Virus record (IMG/VR): IMGVR_UViG_3300047160_004532
Span: 3,416 to 67,415 of that record
Source: a virus
Lineage: Duplodnaviria > Caudoviricetes
DNA length: 64,000 bases
Direction: 5' to 3' (one strand)
This document shows, one piece after another, positions 20,808 through 37,262 of the stretch. The stretch's first letter is position 1. Each line of letters opens with the position of its first letter. Below the pieces are notes generated by a model that ran no database searches, was not told where the DNA came from, and saw nothing but the letters and a program-made list of their open reading frames with translations. The translations under genes were made by a program, and so were the position numbers.

Positions 20808-20885
20808 TGGACACCACCGCGCGGCGCGTGGCCCAAAGAAGGGCGATATCGTGACCGTGGAAGGATGGATTGGAGCTTCGTACTA

Positions 20886-21344
20886 ATGGTCCCTTCTGAC
20901 GCCTGCTACAACCTCATCAAGCGGTTCGAGTCTTTTCAGCCGAACGCCTACCTTGATCCGGAGGGCATCCCGACCATCGGCTACGGCCATACCTATGGCG
21001 TCGTGATGGGCTTCACCTGCACCCAGGTGCAGGCCGACGACTGGCTGAAGTCGGACGTCAGTCTGGCTGATTCATTCGTCGGGGTCCAAGTCAAGGTTCC
21101 CCTCACGCAGGGCCAGTTCGACGCGCTGACGTCCTTCGTGTTCAACTGCGGGATTCAGGCGTTCGCCGAGTCGACACTCCTGCGAAAGCTCAATGCCGGG
21201 GATTATGCCGGCGCGGCGGCCGAGTTCCCTCGATGGGTCCACGGGAACGGGATGCGCGTCCTCGCGGGGCTAGTCACCCGGCGCGCGACCGAACGGATAC
21301 TGTTCGAGACCGGCACGCTGCCAGCACCGGGCAAGAAGCCTTGA
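20886..21344 (+). CDS. Endolysin, GH24 lysozyme
   Basis: E-8-D-5-T triad (FESFQPNAYLDPEGIPTIGYGHT), QFDALTSFVFNCG, GLVTRR. Confidence 0.93.
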   Translation: MVPSDACYNLIKRFESFQPNAYLDPEGIPTIGYGHTYGVVMGFTCTQVQADDWLKSDVSLADSFVGVQVKVPLTQGQFDALTSFVFNCGIQAFAESTLLRKLNAGDYAGAAAEFPRWVHGNGMRVLAGLVTRRATERILFETGTLPAPGKKP

Positions 21345-24146: not shown

Positions 24147-25808
24147 GTGTCAGTAAGAGAGTTTTCTCCCGGAAAGCAGATTACTAGTCCGCGCGGGATG
24201 TGGTCCGCAACAGCGCAGAAGCGCATGGGTAGCCCATCGAGGGCCTCCCTAATGCAGAATATGCGGGTCGCGCCCGGCGTCGTCCGCAGCCGCCCAGGAA
24301 CGACGCCGATCGCGCCGGCCACGGGATTTGTGACCGGGCTCTTCAATTGGATCGACCCACTCGGCGTCAACCACGTCCTATTCCGGGACGGCACGGTTAT
24401 CAGCGACTTCGTCCAGGGAGTCGGAACGGCGACGGTGATGAACAGCATCGGCACGACCTACCGGCCGTCCTTTGCCGATCTTGACGTCTGGACCTACATC
24501 TGCGGTTACGATACCGCCGGCATCGGGACGTTCCAGGCGCGGACCTTCGACGGAACAAACGCGCCGGATCTTTGCTTTGCGCCTCCGATCGCATTGACTG
24601 CGGCCACGGCAACGGACGGCGGAAGCGGACAATGCACTCAGGGCACGCACTTTATCGGATTCGTCTACGAGAATCGGGACGGCTACTCCGGACGGCCAAG
24701 CACCAAGGTGTCGGGTTCCCCGATCTCAATCACCCTCAACGCCGGACTGCGCAAGGTCAATATCACGGTCACCATACCGGCGCTGACGGACGGCGGTCCA
24801 AGTCCAACTGGAGGCAACGCGACTCTATTCCTGATCGTCACTCGTGCCGATAACCCGAATATCTGGTATTTCCTGCCTCCTGCGGTAGGAGCGTCAACAA
24901 GCGTCGAGCAGCGGCCGGTGCCTTACAATATGCCGACGATGCTGAACTTCGTGTTCGATCTTTCGGATGAAGATCTAGCGGCATCCGCGGATTCGGCGAA
25001 TGACCAGTTTAATTTGCTCTCGCAGGCCGATGATGGGACAGGGCCGTTCAATCCAAATTTCGTCGTCGCTTACGGGCAGCGTATGTGCTATGGCGTCGGG
25101 ACGGTTATCTATATCTCCGATATCGACAATCCCCAGCAAATCGCTGCGGATCGGAATCAGTTATCGATGCCGAATAAGCGCTATATCGGGATGGCGTTTC
25201 CGCTGCCCGGAGGCACGGATCTATTCCTCACTGGCGACGGTTGGACCGCGCGCGTGACGGACAACTCCGATATTCCGGCGACGTGGGCTCAGCCAATCAA
25301 AGTCTCCGATCGCCTCGGCGCCCCGTTCCCGAACTGCGTCTGCTTCAAGACCGGCGGCGGTAACGCGTGGATCGCAACATCGGATGGCCCTTACCAGTTC
25401 AACGGTCAGTTCGCAGAGAAACCGCTCTCCTATCTCGTTTCGGACCAGTGGGAAAGGGTGAACTGGACCGCGGCGTACGCGATCGAGATTGCCGACGATG
25501 CAGCGCACCGCAAGCTGTACATGGCGGTCCCCTTAGACGGCGCCACCATTCCGACGCACACCTTCCTCTGGGACTACCAGAACGGCCTCGAATTCGATCA
25601 GGTCGACTTCTCGATCGACAATTACAACTTCACTCAATTCTCCAGCATCGGCGTCGTGAAGGAGATTTCAAACGATAAGACCAACCTCTGGATAGCGCCG
25701 CCGGGTTCAGGCCACCCGCCGTACTGTTTTACAGTTCAGATTACCGATTCCTCGGCGCAGACGGCGAGCGCTAACTGCTGTATCTCTGTCTCGTGTCCGG
25801 GAGCCTAA
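24147..25808 (+). CDS. Tail nozzle (tail tubular B / P22 gp10-like), N-terminal part, ending in last strands of an Ig-like domain
   Basis: ASLMQNMRVAPGVVRSRPG start, propeller blades (VVAYGQRMCYG...IYISD); ends YCFTVQITDSSAQTASANCCISVSC. Confidence 0.75.
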   Translation: MSVREFSPGKQITSPRGMWSATAQKRMGSPSRASLMQNMRVAPGVVRSRPGTTPIAPATGFVTGLFNWIDPLGVNHVLFRDGTVISDFVQGVGTATVMNSIGTTYRPSFADLDVWTYICGYDTAGIGTFQARTFDGTNAPDLCFAPPIALTAATATDGGSGQCTQGTHFIGFVYENRDGYSGRPSTKVSGSPISITLNAGLRKVNITVTIPALTDGGPSPTGGNATLFLIVTRADNPNIWYFLPPAVGASTSVEQRPVPYNMPTMLNFVFDLSDEDLAASADSANDQFNLLSQADDGTGPFNPNFVVAYGQRMCYGVGTVIYISDIDNPQQIAADRNQLSMPNKRYIGMAFPLPGGTDLFLTGDGWTARVTDNSDIPATWAQPIKVSDRLGAPFPNCVCFKTGGGNAWIATSDGPYQFNGQFAEKPLSYLVSDQWERVNWTAAYAIEIADDAAHRKLYMAVPLDGATIPTHTFLWDYQNGLEFDQVDFSIDNYNFTQFSSIGVVKEISNDKTNLWIAPPGSGHPPYCFTVQITDSSAQTASANCCISVSCPGA

Positions 25809-25809
25809 G

Positions 25810-27618
25810 ATGCCAATAACGGTAAATCTAATATCCCATCCGCTATCGGATGCAGGCAACAACGAGAACGGAATCGGGCCGTACCAAGTAGGCACAAACG
25901 ATTATGTCGCGATTATCGACTTTATCCATGACCCGGAAGGCGCGGCAACCGTTTTCCTGGCGGCATGGAGAAGCCTCGACGGCGGCCTCACGTGGTCACA
26001 ATCCGACGCCACCCACGCGCCACAGCTAACCGGAACCGCCGGCACCGGACAGGTTTACGGAGCCGACATCGATCCCGCTTCTGGAAAGATCGTGGTCGCC
26101 TACTTCTCGCACAGTGGGACGACAATCAACGTAACGACGTTTAATCCGGCGACAAATCTTTGGGGTGAGCCTGGCTATGCTTTTGAGGCTGACTGCTTCG
26201 ACTCTCCGACGGTATTCGTCAAGGTCCGTGACGAGCTTTCCTTCACCTATAGCCCAATCGCGGACTATAAGATCTTCTTTTACTGCATGGCGGCAGGTGC
26301 GGCTTATATAGTCGTTGCTCACTCGGACGGACCTTCCCTAAGCGCTATCGGCTACTACAACGGAACGTCATGGAGCGGCTCTTTCCCGGACGGCGGAGCC
26401 TTTTTCACGGCAATCCCAGACTCTACCCGCTCGTTTCTTCACGTCTTTACCGGATCTGGAACTGACTTCAATAAGCTCGAACATACAGCGTGGACAGCAG
26501 GAACGGCTGGCGCAACTTTCGAGGTTGCCGACTGGAACACGTCAAGTCCATTTCCCGTATTCGACAGAGCACAAACGACTGGCTGGATCTCCCGCGGCTG
26601 CGCATTTATTGCTTTCGGGAACGTCTATGTAGCGGGGCTCAGTAGTGATTCAACCAACAGCCACATCTACCTGATGTACGGGACCGATATTTCGACACCG
26701 GCGATGATCTACTCGACGCAGACGATCTCGACGCCGGGAAGCGGAACGTTTGCCCTTAACAACATCCTCATGATGTTTGATGGCACGACATTTAGCATCG
26801 TTTTCGGTAGCGGAGATCCGTTAACGGCGAACACCTATTTAGTAAACAGCACCGACGGCACGACATTCACGGTCAATCCCACGGCAATATCGCCGCTTGC
26901 GAGCGTGTATGCACAAGGAACCTCGCCGCGCGACTACTTTGCTTCTGCCGGAATGATCCTCAGCCGATCGCCGAATCTAGCCCCAGGCATTGGCGTCCCC
27001 TACTACATGGTCTCAGGGGGCAGCCCGCCGCCGCCTACGCCGACGATCGGATGTAATGATCCGCCGACCGCGACCATCGGGACGCCGTATAGCCACACGT
27101 TTTCTTTCAGCGGTGGAACCCCACCTTACACATTCGCAATTACATCCGGTTCGCTGCCGCCCGGCCTTTCCCTCAATACTTCAACCGGCGTGGTTTCGGG
27201 AACGCCATCCGGAGCCGGAATCACTTGCGCCTCAATCGTCCACTATGACGCCAGTACCTTCAACGACAGCGGGGCGGCCGTCGCCACTCTCTGGGAGAGC
27301 GGCCTCGCGCGCGGGGTAGGCGAGCTCGTGAGCATGATGATTCGCCTCGGGGGATGCCTCATCTGGGCGCGCGGGAACGGAACGCTGAACGTCATCGCGT
27401 GGGGCCCAGACCATCAGCAAAGCCAGAATCCGCCGCTTATGATCGTACAGGGAGTGCCGGCGTTGCTGACGCCGCGGCCTGGCGTCACGTATCAGACGCG
27501 ATTTGACATGCGGCAGATCGAGAACGCGACCATGCAAGTAGGAACGAACGCGGTGGATGAATGGGTTGAAGTGTCGATGCTGCAACCACTTTGGAAGCCA
27601 GACCTGTTCAACAGGTAG
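25810..27618 (+). CDS. Asp-box propeller + N-terminal part of Ig-like domain + nozzle C-terminal domain
   Basis: RSLDGGLTWS and STDGTTF Asp-boxes; TPYSHTF..SGGTPPYTFAITSGSLPPGLSLNTSTGVVSGTP; HYDASTFNDSG..V.TLWESG. Confidence 0.75.
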   Translation: MPITVNLISHPLSDAGNNENGIGPYQVGTNDYVAIIDFIHDPEGAATVFLAAWRSLDGGLTWSQSDATHAPQLTGTAGTGQVYGADIDPASGKIVVAYFSHSGTTINVTTFNPATNLWGEPGYAFEADCFDSPTVFVKVRDELSFTYSPIADYKIFFYCMAAGAAYIVVAHSDGPSLSAIGYYNGTSWSGSFPDGGAFFTAIPDSTRSFLHVFTGSGTDFNKLEHTAWTAGTAGATFEVADWNTSSPFPVFDRAQTTGWISRGCAFIAFGNVYVAGLSSDSTNSHIYLMYGTDISTPAMIYSTQTISTPGSGTFALNNILMMFDGTTFSIVFGSGDPLTANTYLVNSTDGTTFTVNPTAISPLASVYAQGTSPRDYFASAGMILSRSPNLAPGIGVPYYMVSGGSPPPPTPTIGCNDPPTATIGTPYSHTFSFSGGTPPYTFAITSGSLPPGLSLNTSTGVVSGTPSGAGITCASIVHYDASTFNDSGAAVATLWESGLARGVGELVSMMIRLGGCLIWARGNGTLNVIAWGPDHQQSQNPPLMIVQGVPALLTPRPGVTYQTRFDMRQIENATMQVGTNAVDEWVEVSMLQPLWKPDLFNR

Positions 27619-27893: not shown

Positions 27894-29162
27894 ATGGCGC
27901 AGCAATCCTTCAGCAACGTTCACGCGACTGGGCCGCCACTCATCACCAACAAGCCCGTGCCCTCGCGCGTGTCGTCTCCCGCCGCCATCCGTTCGGCCTT
28001 TTCGAATGAAAACTGGGCGATGTCGCTGGCGAAGGACATGGAGTCGCTATCCCGCAACGTCGATTCGCTTCATTCCGCCCTTACGCAGAACCAGAGCGTC
28101 AACAGCATTCTCGTAACGAACAATCAGGGCCAAGTCGTCGCCGCGATCGGCAACGTGGTCAACGGCGGGGAGTACTTCACAAACTGGTTCAGCGAGATCC
28201 ACGTCGGCGATCCGCTCCTCACCAAAGATCCCCGAAACGCCCTCTTCAACGCCAACCTAGACGGCAGCGTGACGATCGGTCAGCATGGCTGGCTGGACGT
28301 GCTGGACCCCTATTCCGGCATCGCCGCCTATCTAGGAACCCAGTTCGACTCGATCACGATCACGGACGCGGCGGACAACGGCTCCGGACTGATCCGCCTG
28401 ACGCTCGGAGCCGCCACGGACCTCGTGACCGGCAACACGGCCCAGGTTCGCGGTATGCAGAACGCCGGCGTACCGAACGCCACGGGAACATGGACGGTGA
28501 CGGTTGTCGATTCGACACACGTGGACCTTCAGGGATCGGTATTCGCCGGCATGTATGTCGCGCCGACGGTCCCCTTCGGAATCGATACCGTCTCGCCGAC
28601 GATTGACCGCGTTCTCCAGATTTCTGGCATTACGAGCCATTCCGGCCTGTTCGAAGTGCAGACCGCCGTCGCCCACACGTACGAGACTGGCGACCGAGTG
28701 AACATTTCCGGCGTCACCGGGATGCCAACCGTCAACACCCAGTGGACGGTGACCGTCATAGACTCGACCCACTTCACGCTCGACAACTCTACCTTTGCGG
28801 GCAGTTTCACGACGGGCGGTACGTCGCTCCGGTACTTCGCTGGAGGTCTGTTCCAGACCATCGCGGTCGGACCCTCGTTCCAGGATTACCTACTCCGGGC
28901 GTTCGCGGACGGATCGCTTCGGATCCGAGACGCCCAAATTAGCTTGACGTCGCCCTTCGGCACTATCGTAATTGATCCCGAGGGAGCCCCAGATGGTGCC
29001 GCGACGATCGTCATCACCAACAATTCGGGTGCCCATATCACCATCACCTCTGGCATTTCCTCGACCAATCCGAGCATAATCGGCTACGACAGCGGCGGCA
29101 TCGTCCGCTTCCAGCTTGGGATGCGGCCGATAACGAACGCTGGCTTCCTGGATCTGTTCTGA
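27894..29162 (+). CDS. Tail fibre/spike-like protein with two FCCH-like repeats
   Basis: ITDAADNGSGLIRLT...GTWTVTVVDSTHVDL and ...QWTVTVIDSTHFTL. Confidence 0.7.
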   Translation: MAQQSFSNVHATGPPLITNKPVPSRVSSPAAIRSAFSNENWAMSLAKDMESLSRNVDSLHSALTQNQSVNSILVTNNQGQVVAAIGNVVNGGEYFTNWFSEIHVGDPLLTKDPRNALFNANLDGSVTIGQHGWLDVLDPYSGIAAYLGTQFDSITITDAADNGSGLIRLTLGAATDLVTGNTAQVRGMQNAGVPNATGTWTVTVVDSTHVDLQGSVFAGMYVAPTVPFGIDTVSPTIDRVLQISGITSHSGLFEVQTAVAHTYETGDRVNISGVTGMPTVNTQWTVTVIDSTHFTLDNSTFAGSFTTGGTSLRYFAGGLFQTIAVGPSFQDYLLRAFADGSLRIRDAQISLTSPFGTIVIDPEGAPDGAATIVITNNSGAHITITSGISSTNPSIIGYDSGGIVRFQLGMRPITNAGFLDLF

Positions 29163-32459: not shown

Positions 32460-35400
32460 ATGGGATCGACCAACGGGTTCGACGTTGACAAGTTCCTGAA
32501 CTCAATAGGAAACCAATCACAGCCGCAGCAACCGCAAGCCCAGCCAGCAAGCGGGGGATTCGATGTCGACAGGTTCTTGGACTCGATAGGAAACACGTCG
32601 CCTTCCCCGCAGCCACAAGCTTCCGCGCCGGTACCACCGCCCGACCGCTACCCCGGACTTCCCAAGGCCGTGGCGAGTCCCTCCCTCGACGAGATGCCGT
32701 GGTATCAGCGCTACCCAGAGGAGTTGCGTCGACTCCTCATGGGCGAGCCCGGGCAGGACACGGCGATCGCGCACGCCCTCGGACAAGAGCAAGTCAAACC
32801 ACAATTCCAACCGCAACCATATGAGCGCCCCATTATCAGCTTTGAGGGGAGTCCGACACTCACCCGTGCGGCATTGACCTCGGTAGCTCCGACCTACGCT
32901 TGGTCCCCCGATCCCGATCTCGCGCGCGGAGTCGGCAAGGCCATGACCGGCATGACGACCGGACCCAACGTAGGGCTCCTTGTCGGGACAGCAGGACTCT
33001 CGGAACTACCGGTCCTCGGTCAGGCCGCGAATGCCTACTTCACCGAAGAGATGCTGCGGCAGGCCGCGCAGCAGGCCCCGCAGGTCAAGGAAGCGATGGA
33101 TCGCGGCGACTACGCGACGGCTAAGGAGCTGGCAACCGAGATGGGATTCAACCTCGCCATGGGAGGCGCGGGAGCGGTCCACGCGGTCAAAGGCGCGGCG
33201 AGGATCCCAGGTCAAATCCGGGAACTCGCCACGCGCGAGGCGCAAGCGAGAGGAGAATTCCGTCCGACGACTGGGCAACCGGCGCCGCCGCCGGCAGAAC
33301 CGGGTCCGACAACCGGCGTTCCGCCGCCGCAACCCGAGGCCGTCGAGCCGACGAAGACATCCCGCCCGGGTCCGAGGACGCCGGTTCCTCCGACTGCCGC
33401 CGCAGCTACGGTCCCCGAGGCACCCCAAACGCTGGACATCCAGTTCTCGCAACTCAACCAAGGACTACGGAAGGCCGTCATGGTCCCGAAGGAGAATGCC
33501 AGCTATCGGCCACCATCGCTTGAGCCTGGCATCTCCCGAAAAGCTGACCCTTACGGAAACATCTTCTACTACGACACTCAGCAGGGGGTTACGGCAGGCC
33601 AGGTTCTCGCCGCATCGAAGAATAACACTCTCCCCGAGCTTCTCGGCGGTCCGGGAGGCATGGGCGCGCCCGACAAGTCCGTGCTGCCGCCGAACGCGCC
33701 TGTCGTCACGGCCAAGGCAGCAGACGGGACCGAGGTTCAGTCGACGGCGACAACGCCAGAACGGGTAGGCGAAACGGCAACCGCCACGCAACCGCTGGTT
33801 CCAGAAGGGGGAGCGCTCGAAGTCAAGGCGCCGCAGGAAGCCATCCGGGACCGGCTGGCAGCTCCGGGAGAATCTGTGCCGGCCCCGAACATTTCGACGA
33901 TTGAGCCCACTGTACCACCAAAACCGGGTCAAGAGCTATTCCGTGGTGCGTGGGAGGTGCCTCTCAACGAGAAGGGTGTCGCCGAGGCGCAGGACGCCGC
34001 CCAGCGAACCGCCGGCATGTGGGATGAGATACACGCTAGCCCGATGGGGCGAGCGCAGGAAACGGCTGGAATCGTCGCAGGGACGAACCCGCAGGCGGTC
34101 ATCCACCCGCCGAATCCGGCATTAGCGCCGTGGACTCTAGGCGAGCACGAGGGGAATGCCGTCACGCCCGAGCGGATCGCCGACCTGAACGACCACATCG
34201 TAAACCGTCCAGACGAACCGCTGGGCGGTGTGGGCCAACATTCCGGCAGGCCGGGCGAGAGCTTTAACGACTTCTTCCATCCACTCATCCGCCAACTGCT
34301 GGACGAGGTGCGCGGGTATCAAGAGGGGCAACGGATTCTCAACGTCACCCACTACCGGGACATTCGGGCGATCCAGGCCGCGCTCCGCGCCGAGCATGGT
34401 GAACCCTTTGACGCCGATTTCATGACGGCGAAGGGCGACGAGAAGCCGGGGGATCTCTTCTACTTCGATACGCACACCGGGGATCTAGTCCCGGCTACGG
34501 ACGCTTCGAAGCCAGGAATTTACTTCCTTCGCCACGGCGAGACGATGGCAAATGAGGGGGCGGGAAGTCAAGGGGTAAATCGGGGGCAAATCGGTGGTAA
34601 ATCGGGGGGGATTGGTCCTCCATCGCCCGAAACTCTCGGCGCTCCCGCGCCACTCGGTGGGGAGATTCCCGCGAATATTCGCCCGGAGACGGTGCCTGCT
34701 TCGCGACAACTCGCCGCGCCCGCGCCCTTGGGCGAAACGACCGGGACACCCCCGCCGCCGCGACCGGACGCCTTCAGCCAGTTTCTGACGTCCGAGGAGG
34801 GGTCGTTCAACCCGCAATTCGTCAAGGACGCCCTCGCCGAACCGATCGCCCTCAAGACCAAGCGCGATCAGATGATGAACTTCCTGAAGGCGCGCGAAGG
34901 GACGCCCAGCCAGAAGAAAATGGGCCAGCGCGCGATTGAGTACCTCGTCGGCCAGCGAGACTGGTTCCTCACCAAGTCGATGCAAATTCTCGACATGGCA
35001 AAGAAATTCGTTCCGGACGAGAATGAGCGGAAAGCGCTCGCCCTGATGCGCGACTTCCAGAATCGCCCGGGCGAACTGAAGCAATGGCGCGACCTGACCC
35101 ACCCGAACCTGTACCACGTAGGACGCGGACAGGCGGGACCGGCGAACCTAGACGCCGTCAAGCGAATCGAAGCGCTACGGCCCGTCATCGATCTCGCCTT
35201 GAATCCAACGCCAGGGATGCAGCGTGCCAACATTGTCCTCGACAGCTTCTCTAATCTGACCCTCGCTGTCGGCAAGAAGCTCGGCTGGTTGGACTCGCGC
35301 CTGACCCCCGAGGAGTACGTTCCCCACATTCTTGACTCGAGGGAAGACGTCTTGGAGAATCCGTATACCCAGGAACGGGCGACCGGATCGGCCGTCGCCG

Positions 35401-37262
35401 GCAAGATTAGCCGCAGTTTCGCCCACGGGAAGGAACGTAAAGCCTACGATACCCTGCTCGACGCCATCGCGGACGGTGCCAGGCCGAAGACCCTCGACGC
35501 GATTGACGCCTTCAGCGTCTACGCGGATAAGTTCTCAACGAAGCGTGCCACGGAGATGTGGAAGGACACCATGCTCCAGAACGGTTTCGCGAAGTGGGGG
35601 GGTATGGACAGGCCGGTGGAGGGATGGGAAGTCTTCGCGCCGCAGGGCAACCTGTTCAAGATTCCGTACGCACGGCTGAACAAAAAGGGCGAACCAGTGC
35701 CGGGACTTCAGCAACTCTGGGGGCCAAAATTCATGGTCGATGCCATGAAGCCGGTCACGGACCCGAACTACATGCTCAGGATGCCGTGGCTCCAGAAAAC
35801 CTATCTCTGGCAGCAGTACGTCAAGTCGATCAATCTCGCGTGGTCCTTCTTCCACCCGAAGGCACTCGAACTTATGGCGGCGTCGAACATGGGTCCGGAG
35901 GGGACCTACCGTGCCCATATGCTCGATCTCGACTCCAAGGACGCCAAAGATCTCGAGCAGGATGGCGCAATGCACGGGCTCACGACCGCAATTCAGGGTA
36001 AGGTGATCGATGCCTACCGCCGCCTCGCGCCCGGATCAATCCCGCACTGGGGCGAAATCATCACGAGCGCACCGGGCCTGAAGCAAATGAACAAAGTTGC
36101 CGAGGCCACGACGGAACTGACCTTCGGCGTCATGCAGAGGAAGTTCAAGATCTGGGATTACGGCCGCCAGACGGCGAAGTGGATCGCGGATCATCCGAAC
36201 GCCACGCCGCAGGAGCTTTCTGACGCCAAGACCTCGATCGCGCGCCAAGTGAATGCCGTCTACGGAGGCCTGAACTGGGAAACCCTCGGCTGGAGTCGCC
36301 AAGCTCTCACTCTCGCTCGCCTTGGATTGCTCGCGCCGGACTGGACGTTCTCGAACTTCATGAACGTGGGGCAGGCATTCGAGGGCGGCTGGAAGGGTGC
36401 CACGCACCAAGCCGCCAAGGCGGTCGGCATTAATGCCCCGAAGTCATGGGAGTCAAGCCCTGCCGGAAACTCCGCGCGCTTATTCTGGATCCGAACCATG
36501 CTGGGCGGTATCGCAGCGACCCAACTGATGAGTGTTGCCCTCACCGGAAAGCCCTCAAAACGGCCCACGCAGGTCTACCTTGGCACCGACCCGGAGGGGA
36601 AAGAAGTCTATCAGAACTGGTTCTTCGCGGGCGCGCCAGGCGACCTCGTCAACATGATGAGCAAGATGAAGGAAGGCGGCGGGTTCCATGGTCCGGCAAT
36701 GTGGCTCGCCAACAAGCTCACGCCGATCACGAGGGCCGCTCTGCAGCAGTACACCGGCAAAACATACGTCGGCAAAGACATCGCCTCCAAGGATATGGAC
36801 TTCCTGCCGAAGACTGTCCGGCAGGGGGCCTATGCTCTACGCGAAATCTCGCCGATCCCCTTCTCGGCCTCTAGCGCCTACGACATGCTCACCAGCGGCG
36901 GTCCGGAGCGCAAACCCGTCGAGTATATTTCTACCCTCCTTGGCGGGCAGCCAGCCTCTCACGTTGTGCCCGAGGGCATGAAGATGACCTCCAAGGGCTT
37001 GCGTCCCGAGAAGCCAAAGACCAAAATCAGCCAATTCCAGCAAATGTGGAGCGGTCGGGTATACGTCCCTGAAGCAAAGAGCTTGGAGCGAATGGACCTC
37101 ACGAACGCCTTACGCGCATACGATTCGGTTTCAGATGCGGACCGGGAGAAACTCAAGGCCATCATGCGCGGGAAGGTCTACCGTGCGCGCTCCCAGCCGA
37201 GCCAGTGGACCCCGGACGCCAAGAGTCTCGCAATGAAGCATTTCAATGTAGGTCCGTACTGA
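32460..37262 (+). CDS. Large ejection-type protein (1600 aa) with embedded permuted histidine phosphatase domain
   Basis: Duplicated GFDVD.FL.SIGN N-terminus; PLNEKG, SPMGRAQETA, GES, VTH and RHGET motifs at 33930-34556. Confidence 0.75.
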   Translation: MGSTNGFDVDKFLNSIGNQSQPQQPQAQPASGGFDVDRFLDSIGNTSPSPQPQASAPVPPPDRYPGLPKAVASPSLDEMPWYQRYPEELRRLLMGEPGQDTAIAHALGQEQVKPQFQPQPYERPIISFEGSPTLTRAALTSVAPTYAWSPDPDLARGVGKAMTGMTTGPNVGLLVGTAGLSELPVLGQAANAYFTEEMLRQAAQQAPQVKEAMDRGDYATAKELATEMGFNLAMGGAGAVHAVKGAARIPGQIRELATREAQARGEFRPTTGQPAPPPAEPGPTTGVPPPQPEAVEPTKTSRPGPRTPVPPTAAAATVPEAPQTLDIQFSQLNQGLRKAVMVPKENASYRPPSLEPGISRKADPYGNIFYYDTQQGVTAGQVLAASKNNTLPELLGGPGGMGAPDKSVLPPNAPVVTAKAADGTEVQSTATTPERVGETATATQPLVPEGGALEVKAPQEAIRDRLAAPGESVPAPNISTIEPTVPPKPGQELFRGAWEVPLNEKGVAEAQDAAQRTAGMWDEIHASPMGRAQETAGIVAGTNPQAVIHPPNPALAPWTLGEHEGNAVTPERIADLNDHIVNRPDEPLGGVGQHSGRPGESFNDFFHPLIRQLLDEVRGYQEGQRILNVTHYRDIRAIQAALRAEHGEPFDADFMTAKGDEKPGDLFYFDTHTGDLVPATDASKPGIYFLRHGETMANEGAGSQGVNRGQIGGKSGGIGPPSPETLGAPAPLGGEIPANIRPETVPASRQLAAPAPLGETTGTPPPPRPDAFSQFLTSEEGSFNPQFVKDALAEPIALKTKRDQMMNFLKAREGTPSQKKMGQRAIEYLVGQRDWFLTKSMQILDMAKKFVPDENERKALALMRDFQNRPGELKQWRDLTHPNLYHVGRGQAGPANLDAVKRIEALRPVIDLALNPTPGMQRANIVLDSFSNLTLAVGKKLGWLDSRLTPEEYVPHILDSREDVLENPYTQERATGSAVAGKISRSFAHGKERKAYDTLLDAIADGARPKTLDAIDAFSVYADKFSTKRATEMWKDTMLQNGFAKWGGMDRPVEGWEVFAPQGNLFKIPYARLNKKGEPVPGLQQLWGPKFMVDAMKPVTDPNYMLRMPWLQKTYLWQQYVKSINLAWSFFHPKALELMAASNMGPEGTYRAHMLDLDSKDAKDLEQDGAMHGLTTAIQGKVIDAYRRLAPGSIPHWGEIITSAPGLKQMNKVAEATTELTFGVMQRKFKIWDYGRQTAKWIADHPNATPQELSDAKTSIARQVNAVYGGLNWETLGWSRQALTLARLGLLAPDWTFSNFMNVGQAFEGGWKGATHQAAKAVGINAPKSWESSPAGNSARLFWIRTMLGGIAATQLMSVALTGKPSKRPTQVYLGTDPEGKEVYQNWFFAGAPGDLVNMMSKMKEGGGFHGPAMWLANKLTPITRAALQQYTGKTYVGKDIASKDMDFLPKTVRQGAYALREISPIPFSASSAYDMLTSGGPERKPVEYISTLLGGQPASHVVPEGMKMTSKGLRPEKPKTKISQFQQMWSGRVYVPEAKSLERMDLTNALRAYDSVSDADREKLKAIMRGKVYRARSQPSQWTPDAKSLAMKHFNVGPY

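Follow-up and report, generated by a model that had tools for sequence, protein, structure and literature searches.

How can an essential ring-forming protein such as the tail nozzle of a podophage be broken into two polypeptides and still be assembled? This question is raised by two consecutive open reading frames (ORFs) in a 64,000-nucleotide (nt) stretch of viral DNA (the whole stretch is called the window throughout this work), which is most of a linear, 74%-complete metagenome contig of 67.4 kb from IMG/VR. The source phage is an uncultured soil podophage, and near-identical fragments of the window are present in soil metagenomes. The two genes, ORF1 (P0001, 24147-25808) and ORF2 (P0002, 25810-27618), lie on the plus strand, and an initial annotation had described them as a split nozzle, the halves of which carry complementary pieces of one immunoglobulin (Ig)-like domain in swapped order.

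Split nozzles were first described in the Pseudomonas phage A1002 (Kochitakasuvirus; PLoS Biol 2026, PMC13730344), in the only paper on the subject that our literature search found. In this phage, the nozzle-base gp42 (398 amino acids, aa) ends in a short "fiber-dock-N" segment, and, in the nozzle-rope gp39, propeller-C and platform-C (residues 469-620) are preceded by a long rope, the fibre dock, and by an Ig-like domain; together, gp42 and gp39 rebuild a canonical nozzle via beta-strand complementation (PMC13730344). By their numbers, the fibre genes gp40/41 fall between those of the two nozzle pieces, and the rope binds fibre dimers by strand augmentation (PMC13730344).

In this work, we compare the two ORFs of the window with their relatives, using alignments, profile searches and structural models. 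The likely answer to the question is a two-piece nozzle in which a split Ig domain, with one part at the end of ORF1 and the other inside ORF2, acts as a clasp that joins the pieces and to which a cargo domain is attached.

Results

Two pieces of a tail nozzle

ORF1 (553 aa) opens with a GTG, a start supported by the conservation of its N-terminus, and ORF2 (602 aa) opens with an ATG. More than 140 homologues of ORF1 were found, and the nozzle family counts 489 representative clusters in 1.84 billion. A typical homologue is 630-660 aa long, matches ORF1 to about residue 522 and then continues for about 129 residues to an L-F-N-R end; these C-terminal 129 residues are absent from ORF1 and align with residues 474-602 of ORF2. 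ORF1 itself aligns to the nozzle homologues as far as a W-I-x-P-x-G-x-G motif, and its last ~30 residues are absent from the uninterrupted ones. From the homologue alignment and the fold, the N-terminal nozzle piece (hereafter A; ORF1 residues 1-522, 24147-25712) comprises platform-N, the beta-propeller and part of the tip; it aligns at 54-69% identity to more than 120 homologues and supplies about 80% of the nozzle. The C-terminal piece (hereafter B; ORF2 residues 474-602 plus the stop, 27229-27618) provides the last 129 residues, with the last propeller strands and platform-C.

Database searches with the two ORFs gave no match in PHROGs, none in a sequence search of the PDB and none, by DNA or protein, in the phage collection; Pfam gave nothing significant in ORF1, and a scan of IMG/VR returned four loci only. 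The window's own ORFs are known as nozzle through their 55-69% identity to proteins that were folded, the folds being those of relatives (the uninterrupted homologue P0008 and the read-through of a second pair, at locus L006). The AlphaFold2 (AF2) model of P0008, computed from a 42-row alignment, has a predicted local distance difference test score (pLDDT) of 91.3, and its top 30 Foldseek matches are all podophage nozzles, the best being that of cyanophage A4 (E-value, E, 7.6e-17), with T7 gp12, HRP29, Kp9, SU10, PhiM1, P22 gp10 and Sf6 also among the matches. Since all 30 are nozzle proteins, the identification as a nozzle is right.

The break point was located with a checked alignment (A9) of uninterrupted rows against the read-through of the L006 pair, in which the uninterrupted rows occupy residues 1-528 and 949-1076 of the read-through, and none of the residues between. 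The break falls in a tight turn between strands 507-513 and 517-523 of P0008, and the insertion splits one nozzle hairpin (W-I-G-P-S-A-A-G / N-I-A-H-F-D). The split nozzle of the initial annotation is thus borne out, A and B being contiguous when aligned to uninterrupted homologues, and so is its assignment of the ORF2 C-terminus to the nozzle. We hold it very probable that the two pieces form a functional nozzle.

The ORFs meet at 25799-25812, where a Shine-Dalgarno-like GGGAG, the TAA of ORF1, a single G and the ATG of ORF2 follow one another; both genes and the TAA-G-ATG junction are as first described, with coordinates confirmed. The GGGAG lies 6 nt 5' of the ATG, and ORF2 is read in the +1 frame relative to ORF1. 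Together, the GGGAG and the TAA-G-ATG junction suggest translational coupling of the two genes. In L006 and in a third pair, L007, the junction is TAAATG and both ORFs are in one frame.

The natural read-through of the L006 pair (P0247, with the TAA read as G) was modelled by AF2 as a single chain, with alignment A9. The pLDDT is ~90 for A, 85-90 for B and below 40 for the undefined N-domain of the partner, ahead of its complete Ig. Solved nozzles superpose over their whole length on residues 5-1076 of this model, with Z-scores (Z) of 20-29 and ~450 aligned residues (Pa223 28.8, VP1 27.1, P22 gp10 25.5 and T7 gp12 ~21); A and B therefore rebuild one nozzle in the model.

Two halves of one Ig-like domain

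The residues that interrupt the nozzle on either side of the chain break belong to the same type of domain. The end of ORF1 (hereafter I2; residues 523-553, 25713-25805) corresponds to strands F and G, the final pair of a He_PIG-type Ig, and residues 411-473 of ORF2 (hereafter I1; 27040-27228), immediately before B, to its first four strands. These assignments were made with an 87-position Ig hidden Markov model (HMM), built from 637 complete domains of He_PIG proteins matched in the ORF2 homologue search, of which I2 covers positions 62-85 (E 1.6e-5) and I1 positions 1-70 (E 1.4e-25). I1 is also found by the Pfam He_PIG family (PF05345; ORF2 residues 416-469, profile positions 8-70/96, E 7.8e-8), passing its gathering threshold with 33.1 bits for a cut-off of 24. 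Neither polypeptide holds a complete Ig, I1 being in ORF2 and the remainder in ORF1. Over all six frames of the window, I1 and I2 are the only two matches of the Ig HMM, so the window offers no other possible partner for either half.

The same division recurs in the relatives. I1 of the eight ORF2-type partners extends from HMM positions 1-2 to 57-70 (E 1e-16 to 1e-25), and I2 of ten ORF1-type proteins, at their extreme C-end, from positions 58-62 to 85 (E 8e-8 to 0.016); the uninterrupted nozzles gave no match to the Ig HMM. In P0245, the L006 partner, a complete Ig copy stands immediately before I1, and thus shows what the intact sequence looks like. Judged by these profile matches, I1 and I2 are complementary, non-overlapping pieces of one Ig domain with the boundary at about HMM position 60, in the swapped order already proposed. 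The remark that the junctions share no exact DNA repeat also holds, as no direct or inverted repeats were found at the two joints flanking the insert.

In the P0247 model, I2 has a pLDDT of ~75 with strands at 531-539 and 545-553, and I1 has 74-78 with four strands within 901-938. The complete Ig of the same chain has 66-75, the split halves being equally good. These confidence values would be consistent with a contact between I1 and I2, and that the two halves co-fold with each other we regard as quite likely.

Cysteines of the split domain

Two pairs of cysteines (Cys) are distributed over the halves. The first consists of C415 of ORF2 (27052-27054), at the start of I1, and C544 of ORF1 (25776-25778), where the G strand of I2 begins. 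Both are invariant in 8/8 pairs and correspond to HMM columns 3 and 80. Among 465 distinct complete domains, Cys is present at neither column in 384, only at column 3 in 13, only at column 80 in none and at both in 68 (Fisher test, 7e-69). Such co-occurrence is the signature of an intradomain pair, and in the split domain this pair would therefore link the two chains. The IGC with NCC pairing suggested in the initial annotation is that of C415 with C544, the residues of these two strongly co-occurring columns.

The second pair consists of C473 of ORF2 (27226-27228), at the I1/B joint, and C550 of ORF1 (25794-25796), at the end of I2. Six of the ORF pairs have both members and two (L012 and L013) have neither, and no such Cys pair exists in the complete Ig of P0245; from this distribution, the second Cys pair looks like a staple specific to the split form. 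The Cys codons that had been singled out near the joints were correctly read, 27226 being C473 and 25725 being C527 of ORF1; C527 and C545 of ORF1 are found in the window only.

A four-Cys site for zinc or another metal was considered and rejected, since two pairs retain just two of the four cysteines; because the cysteines are lost two at a time, disulfides fit better. On balance, we lean slightly towards the existence of at least one inter-chain disulfide.

An old cassette with variable cargo

The ORF2 homologue search was dominated by He_PIG repeat proteins and returned no partners, which were located via gene context. In total, eight ORF1/ORF2-type pairs, on separate contigs and with 50-86% identity, have a common arrangement, and a ninth contig (encoding P0004), outside these eight, has the same layout. 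The second gene adjoins the first in five of them. In the window, it encodes propeller-I1-B (602 aa) and, in L012, likewise propeller-I1-B (625 aa); in L006 an undefined domain and the complete Ig precede I1-B (515 aa), and in L007 TIG-like repeats and a propeller do (1114 aa). In L013, the partner is a bare I1-B (191 aa), and the cargo is found after I2 in the first protein (A-I2-X, 951 aa). In the remaining three pairs, short repeats precede I1-B and other genes lie between the pieces: two in L004 and L005 (partners of 242-243 aa) and five in L002 (245 aa). Cargo after I2 is carried by P0042, P0250 (950 extra residues) and P0255, the last two being further A-I2-X proteins.

Mean pairwise identities over the pairs are 58% for A, 53% for I1, 44% for I2 and 48% for B; the age of the cassette therefore matches that of the family, and it was kept intact. 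The conservation of the arrangement in eight pairs argues that it is neither an artefact nor a dead gene. The insert is thus an old cassette, with cargo on either side of the chain break. Of the permuted 1.5-kb insertion proposed earlier, the permuted insertion stands and the fixed 1.5-kb unit does not, the cassette content ranging from nothing to five genes. The same hairpin is also used without a chain break: P0251 (1371 aa, from a 64.5-kb ENA contig) is a single-chain nozzle with an in-frame insert of ~750 residues and Pro-rich linkers at this position, from which it follows that the hairpin is a general cargo site. Among the family members examined, ~95% are uninterrupted and ~5% split.

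In ORF2 of the window, the cargo (residues 1-410, 25810-27039) consists of what is probably a BNR/sialidase-like beta-propeller and, after it, a Pro-rich linker. The "Asp-box propeller" of the initial annotation is a lead only: the cargo has two Asp-box-like S-x-D-x-G-x-T-W motifs, and its structural neighbours in the Atlas are BNR_2/BNR_4/sialidase clusters (template modelling score, TM, 0.66-0.72, for a query model with a pLDDT of just 0.50), but Pfam gave no match to it at E<=0.01. It is also weakly similar to the propeller of another partner, P0248. For display at the tail tip, as once suggested, we found no support; by analogy with A1002, a lateral position is likelier, with the cargo probably on the side of the nozzle, where the fibre dock is.

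Several side observations concern the space between the pieces and the partners with short repeats. The five genes of the L002 gap include those for a 75-aa Acb2/Tad1-hairpin protein (E 2.9e-18), of a family that acts as sponges for anti-phage signalling molecules, and for a protein of 120 aa with HTH_23/32/29/33, a set typical of the N-termini of IS630-type transposases (L002:7674-7901 and L002:10683-11045 for the pair); this gap seems to be a landing site for accessory genes. The N-termini of P0243, P0242 and P0244 (L004:9837-9990, L002:11046-11200 and L005:9856-10010) hold three copies of a 9-14-residue repeat, R-V-P/A-Q-V-T-x-E-V, and two genes (~375 and ~350 aa) precede these short partners, one of them weakly similar to ConA-like 3-keto-disaccharide-hydrolases (E 7.7e-5). 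By analogy with the rope of A1002, the repeats could be a short fibre dock, with the fibres encoded between the nozzle pieces.

Discussion

How the two chains would be joined

In the mechanism that we propose, for which the evidence is indirect, B would complete the nozzle fold by strand pairing with A, and I2 would contribute strands F-G to I1 (strands A-E), so as to form a whole Ig across the chain break. The reassembled domain would then be a clasp at the place where the two chains cross, probably with C415(ORF2)-C544(ORF1) as an inter-chain disulfide inherited from the parent domain and C473(ORF2)-C550(ORF1) as a second staple, specific to the split form, at the other pole. Such a clasp would convert an internal insertion site into one where cargo is attached by a single end, which would account for the very different cargo that the relatives carry on either side of the break.

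Some points weigh against this proposal. The P0247 model, made for a relative, replaces the two chains by a single one, and the uninterrupted rows of A9 favour docking of A and B; the Ig halves are covered by just 3-4 rows of its alignment. The rows of the Fisher test lack independence, being repeats from within related proteins, and L012 and L013, which are without the second Cys pair, share one broad clade, so that its absence may be a single event. The tree used to count the changes (see below) comes from FastTree only. Finally, phage assembly takes place in a reducing cytoplasm, and disulfides would need to form late or after lysis.

The two-piece nozzle could also work with the Ig halves engaged elsewhere, that is, with I2 pairing with the I1 of a neighbouring subunit, which would chain the hexamer ring (covalently, if disulfides form), or with A-B complementation alone holding the pieces and I1 taking a strand from another protein. 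The geometry makes a swap between neighbours as plausible as pairing within the heterodimer, since the end of the Ig G strand and the start of the A strand are at opposite poles, and the pieces of A1002 are held by strand complementation of propeller and platform, with no shared Ig (PMC13730344). Nevertheless, the window encodes no other Ig-type strand donor, I1 and I2 always co-occur and their cysteines co-vary, and, by the chain topology, I1 ends and I2 begins beside the A/B hairpin of the same subunit; we therefore consider this arrangement unlikely.

A broken nozzle, either a remnant inactivated by insertion or part of a defective phage, might be thought of in a family so largely uninterrupted. 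Both ORFs are, however, intact in eight pairs that have diverged to 50-60% identity, with no frame damage and with the key residues invariant; stop and following start are closely coupled, and the searched genome region has one nozzle match only, with no second nozzle gene. Decay is, on this evidence, very improbable.

Even less credible is the restoration of a single chain, whether by DNA excision, stop recoding or intein-like trans-splicing at the junction Cys, two of which the initial annotation had mentioned as more exotic alternatives. A Cys (Ser in two pairs) does occupy the I1/B joint, the site of a +1 nucleophile, and the L006 and L007 ORFs are in frame, but the window's ORFs are in different frames and two to five genes separate the pieces in L002, L004 and L005. 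In addition, excision finds neither direct nor inverted repeats where the insert is joined, and no joined form among the metagenome contigs matching the stretch; splicing finds no HINT/intein family in Pfam (the flanking pieces being Ig strands), I-T and not H-N before C473, and no conserved nucleophile at the A/I2 joint. An assembly artefact, the last alternative, would suit a metagenome-assembled, linear and incomplete contig, but has next to no plausibility, as the same architecture is found in independent assemblies from other samples and unitigs from other soil-metagenome runs span the A/I2/stop/ATG region with 0 differences (the one unitig that crosses the I1/B joint does so with just 23 nt leftward, and was not counted as bridging).

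Likely origin of the proposed clasp

Returning to the split-Ig clasp, the history of the cassette was followed on a FastTree tree of the A part (110 rows), on which at least 6-7 changes are required to explain the ten split rows. For each pair, the closest uninterrupted relative is the same by B as by A (for L012, P0049, with 70% and 82%); A and B were therefore co-inherited, and the cassette was gained or lost repeatedly, presumably through recombination between relatives.

A candidate source is P0126 (from L014), in which six Ig domains of the Cys-pair type stand in tandem; this virion protein of a related phage is encoded 2.7 kb upstream of an uninterrupted nozzle gene. Tandem He_PIG arrays in virion proteins of related phages, P0126 among them, are of the same subtype as the clasp, with Cys at columns 3/80 and 55-70% identity to I1, and differ from it in that their domains are complete and contiguous. 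The clasp likely originated when one repeat unit (I2-I1) of such a tandem array was copied out of phase: I2 of unit n and I1 of unit n+1 would have been copied into the nozzle loop, giving A-I2-I1-B in frame. The nozzle loop G-P-S-A-A-G resembles the Ig E-F loop G-T-P-x-x-x-G. Because the ends of an Ig are at opposite poles, an A-I2-I1-B chain would be prone either to hold a long insert or to break between I2 and I1, and both are seen.

On a wider proposal our judgement is nearly balanced, leaning slightly against. It holds that I2...I1 is a natural, portable split-Ig clasp, made of a two-strand tag and a four-strand catcher with one or two inter-chain disulfides, which arose by out-of-phase copying from an array into the hairpin of an essential tail protein, accepts cargo of any topology or sets of genes (including an anti-defence gene) and was gained or lost at least six times.

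Comparison with known systems

The principle of the split nozzle is already known from A1002; the proposed clasp of Ig halves with conserved cysteines is new. In both A1002 and the window, two genes encode the nozzle, its final ~130-150 residues form the C-end of a separate protein with an accessory N-part, and the N-piece ends in a short extra segment; genes between the pieces are shared by A1002 and L002/L004/L005. From the order and sizes of the domains, the break is probably at the same structural position. The window differs in lineage, in that the break is bridged by the halves of one He_PIG Ig, in swapped order and with conserved cysteines, in its gene order (N-piece first) and in its cargo, a propeller or other domain in place of a 300-A rope. 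A tblastn search of ORF1 against 50,697 phage records, a collection in which the membership of A1002 is not established, gave no match. The canonical nozzles (T7 gp12, P22 gp10, Sf6 gp8, VP1, Pa223 and SU10) have the same A+B fold, at the Z and aligned lengths given above, but are single polypeptides with ~10% sequence identity and no Ig halves.

Outside the nozzles, the closest parallels are found in strand-complemented Ig-like folds. In chaperone-usher pili, an Ig-like fold without its last strand or strands is completed by another polypeptide, in a very stable non-covalent joint; there, the next subunit donates one strand only, G, and the result is a polymer, whereas in the clasp the partner chain would provide F and G strands in an obligate heterodimer, with probable disulfides and a split arising via permuted insertion. 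Split Ig-like domains have also been engineered, for example SpyTag/SpyCatcher, in which a short tag with a strand and the larger rest of the beta-sandwich reassemble and are joined covalently, via an isopeptide bond; the split of the window occurs in nature, and its locks are probably disulfides.

Should the clasp work as proposed here, split nozzles would recur (~5% of a family with 489 representative clusters) and would not be a one-off of A1002, and they would illustrate a route for breaking an essential ring-forming protein while retaining its assembly. Receptor- or glycan-binding cargo would be exchangeable at a fixed site of the nozzle, which bears on the evolution of host range in soil phages, and the halves would be a natural split beta-sandwich pair, with built-in covalent locks, for protein engineering. 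For annotation, short He_PIG proteins with an L-F-N-R-type nozzle C-terminus are to be read as nozzle pieces, and not as fibres.

Other nozzle variants and neighbouring genes

Other homologues depart from the typical nozzle in different ways. Many of those with 727-966 aa (P0018, P0025, P0048, P0073 and others) have between one and four small beta-barrels inserted past about residue 185, which is a second, independent insertion site; P0073 has an E1_FCCH domain (PF16190). In P0022, P0339, P0340, P0348, P0351 and P0361, part A is kept and is followed by 150-420 residues that are neither I2 nor B; these may be further split or remodelled nozzles.

The nozzle gene of the window sits among structural and lysis genes, and a related contig encodes a P22-type portal. 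A phage lysozyme (PF00959, E 2e-44) is encoded at 20865-21344, amid virion genes and ~2.8 kb upstream of the nozzle. ORF2 is followed by a gene (27894-29162) that likewise encodes an E1_FCCH domain (E 6.8e-8). Further downstream, a 1600-aa protein (32460-37262) matches His_Phos_1 over residues 492-643 (profile positions 15-159/194, E 6.2e-16), and a histidine-phosphatase domain is also present in a 470-aa protein in the same module of a relative (L014:18021-19433).

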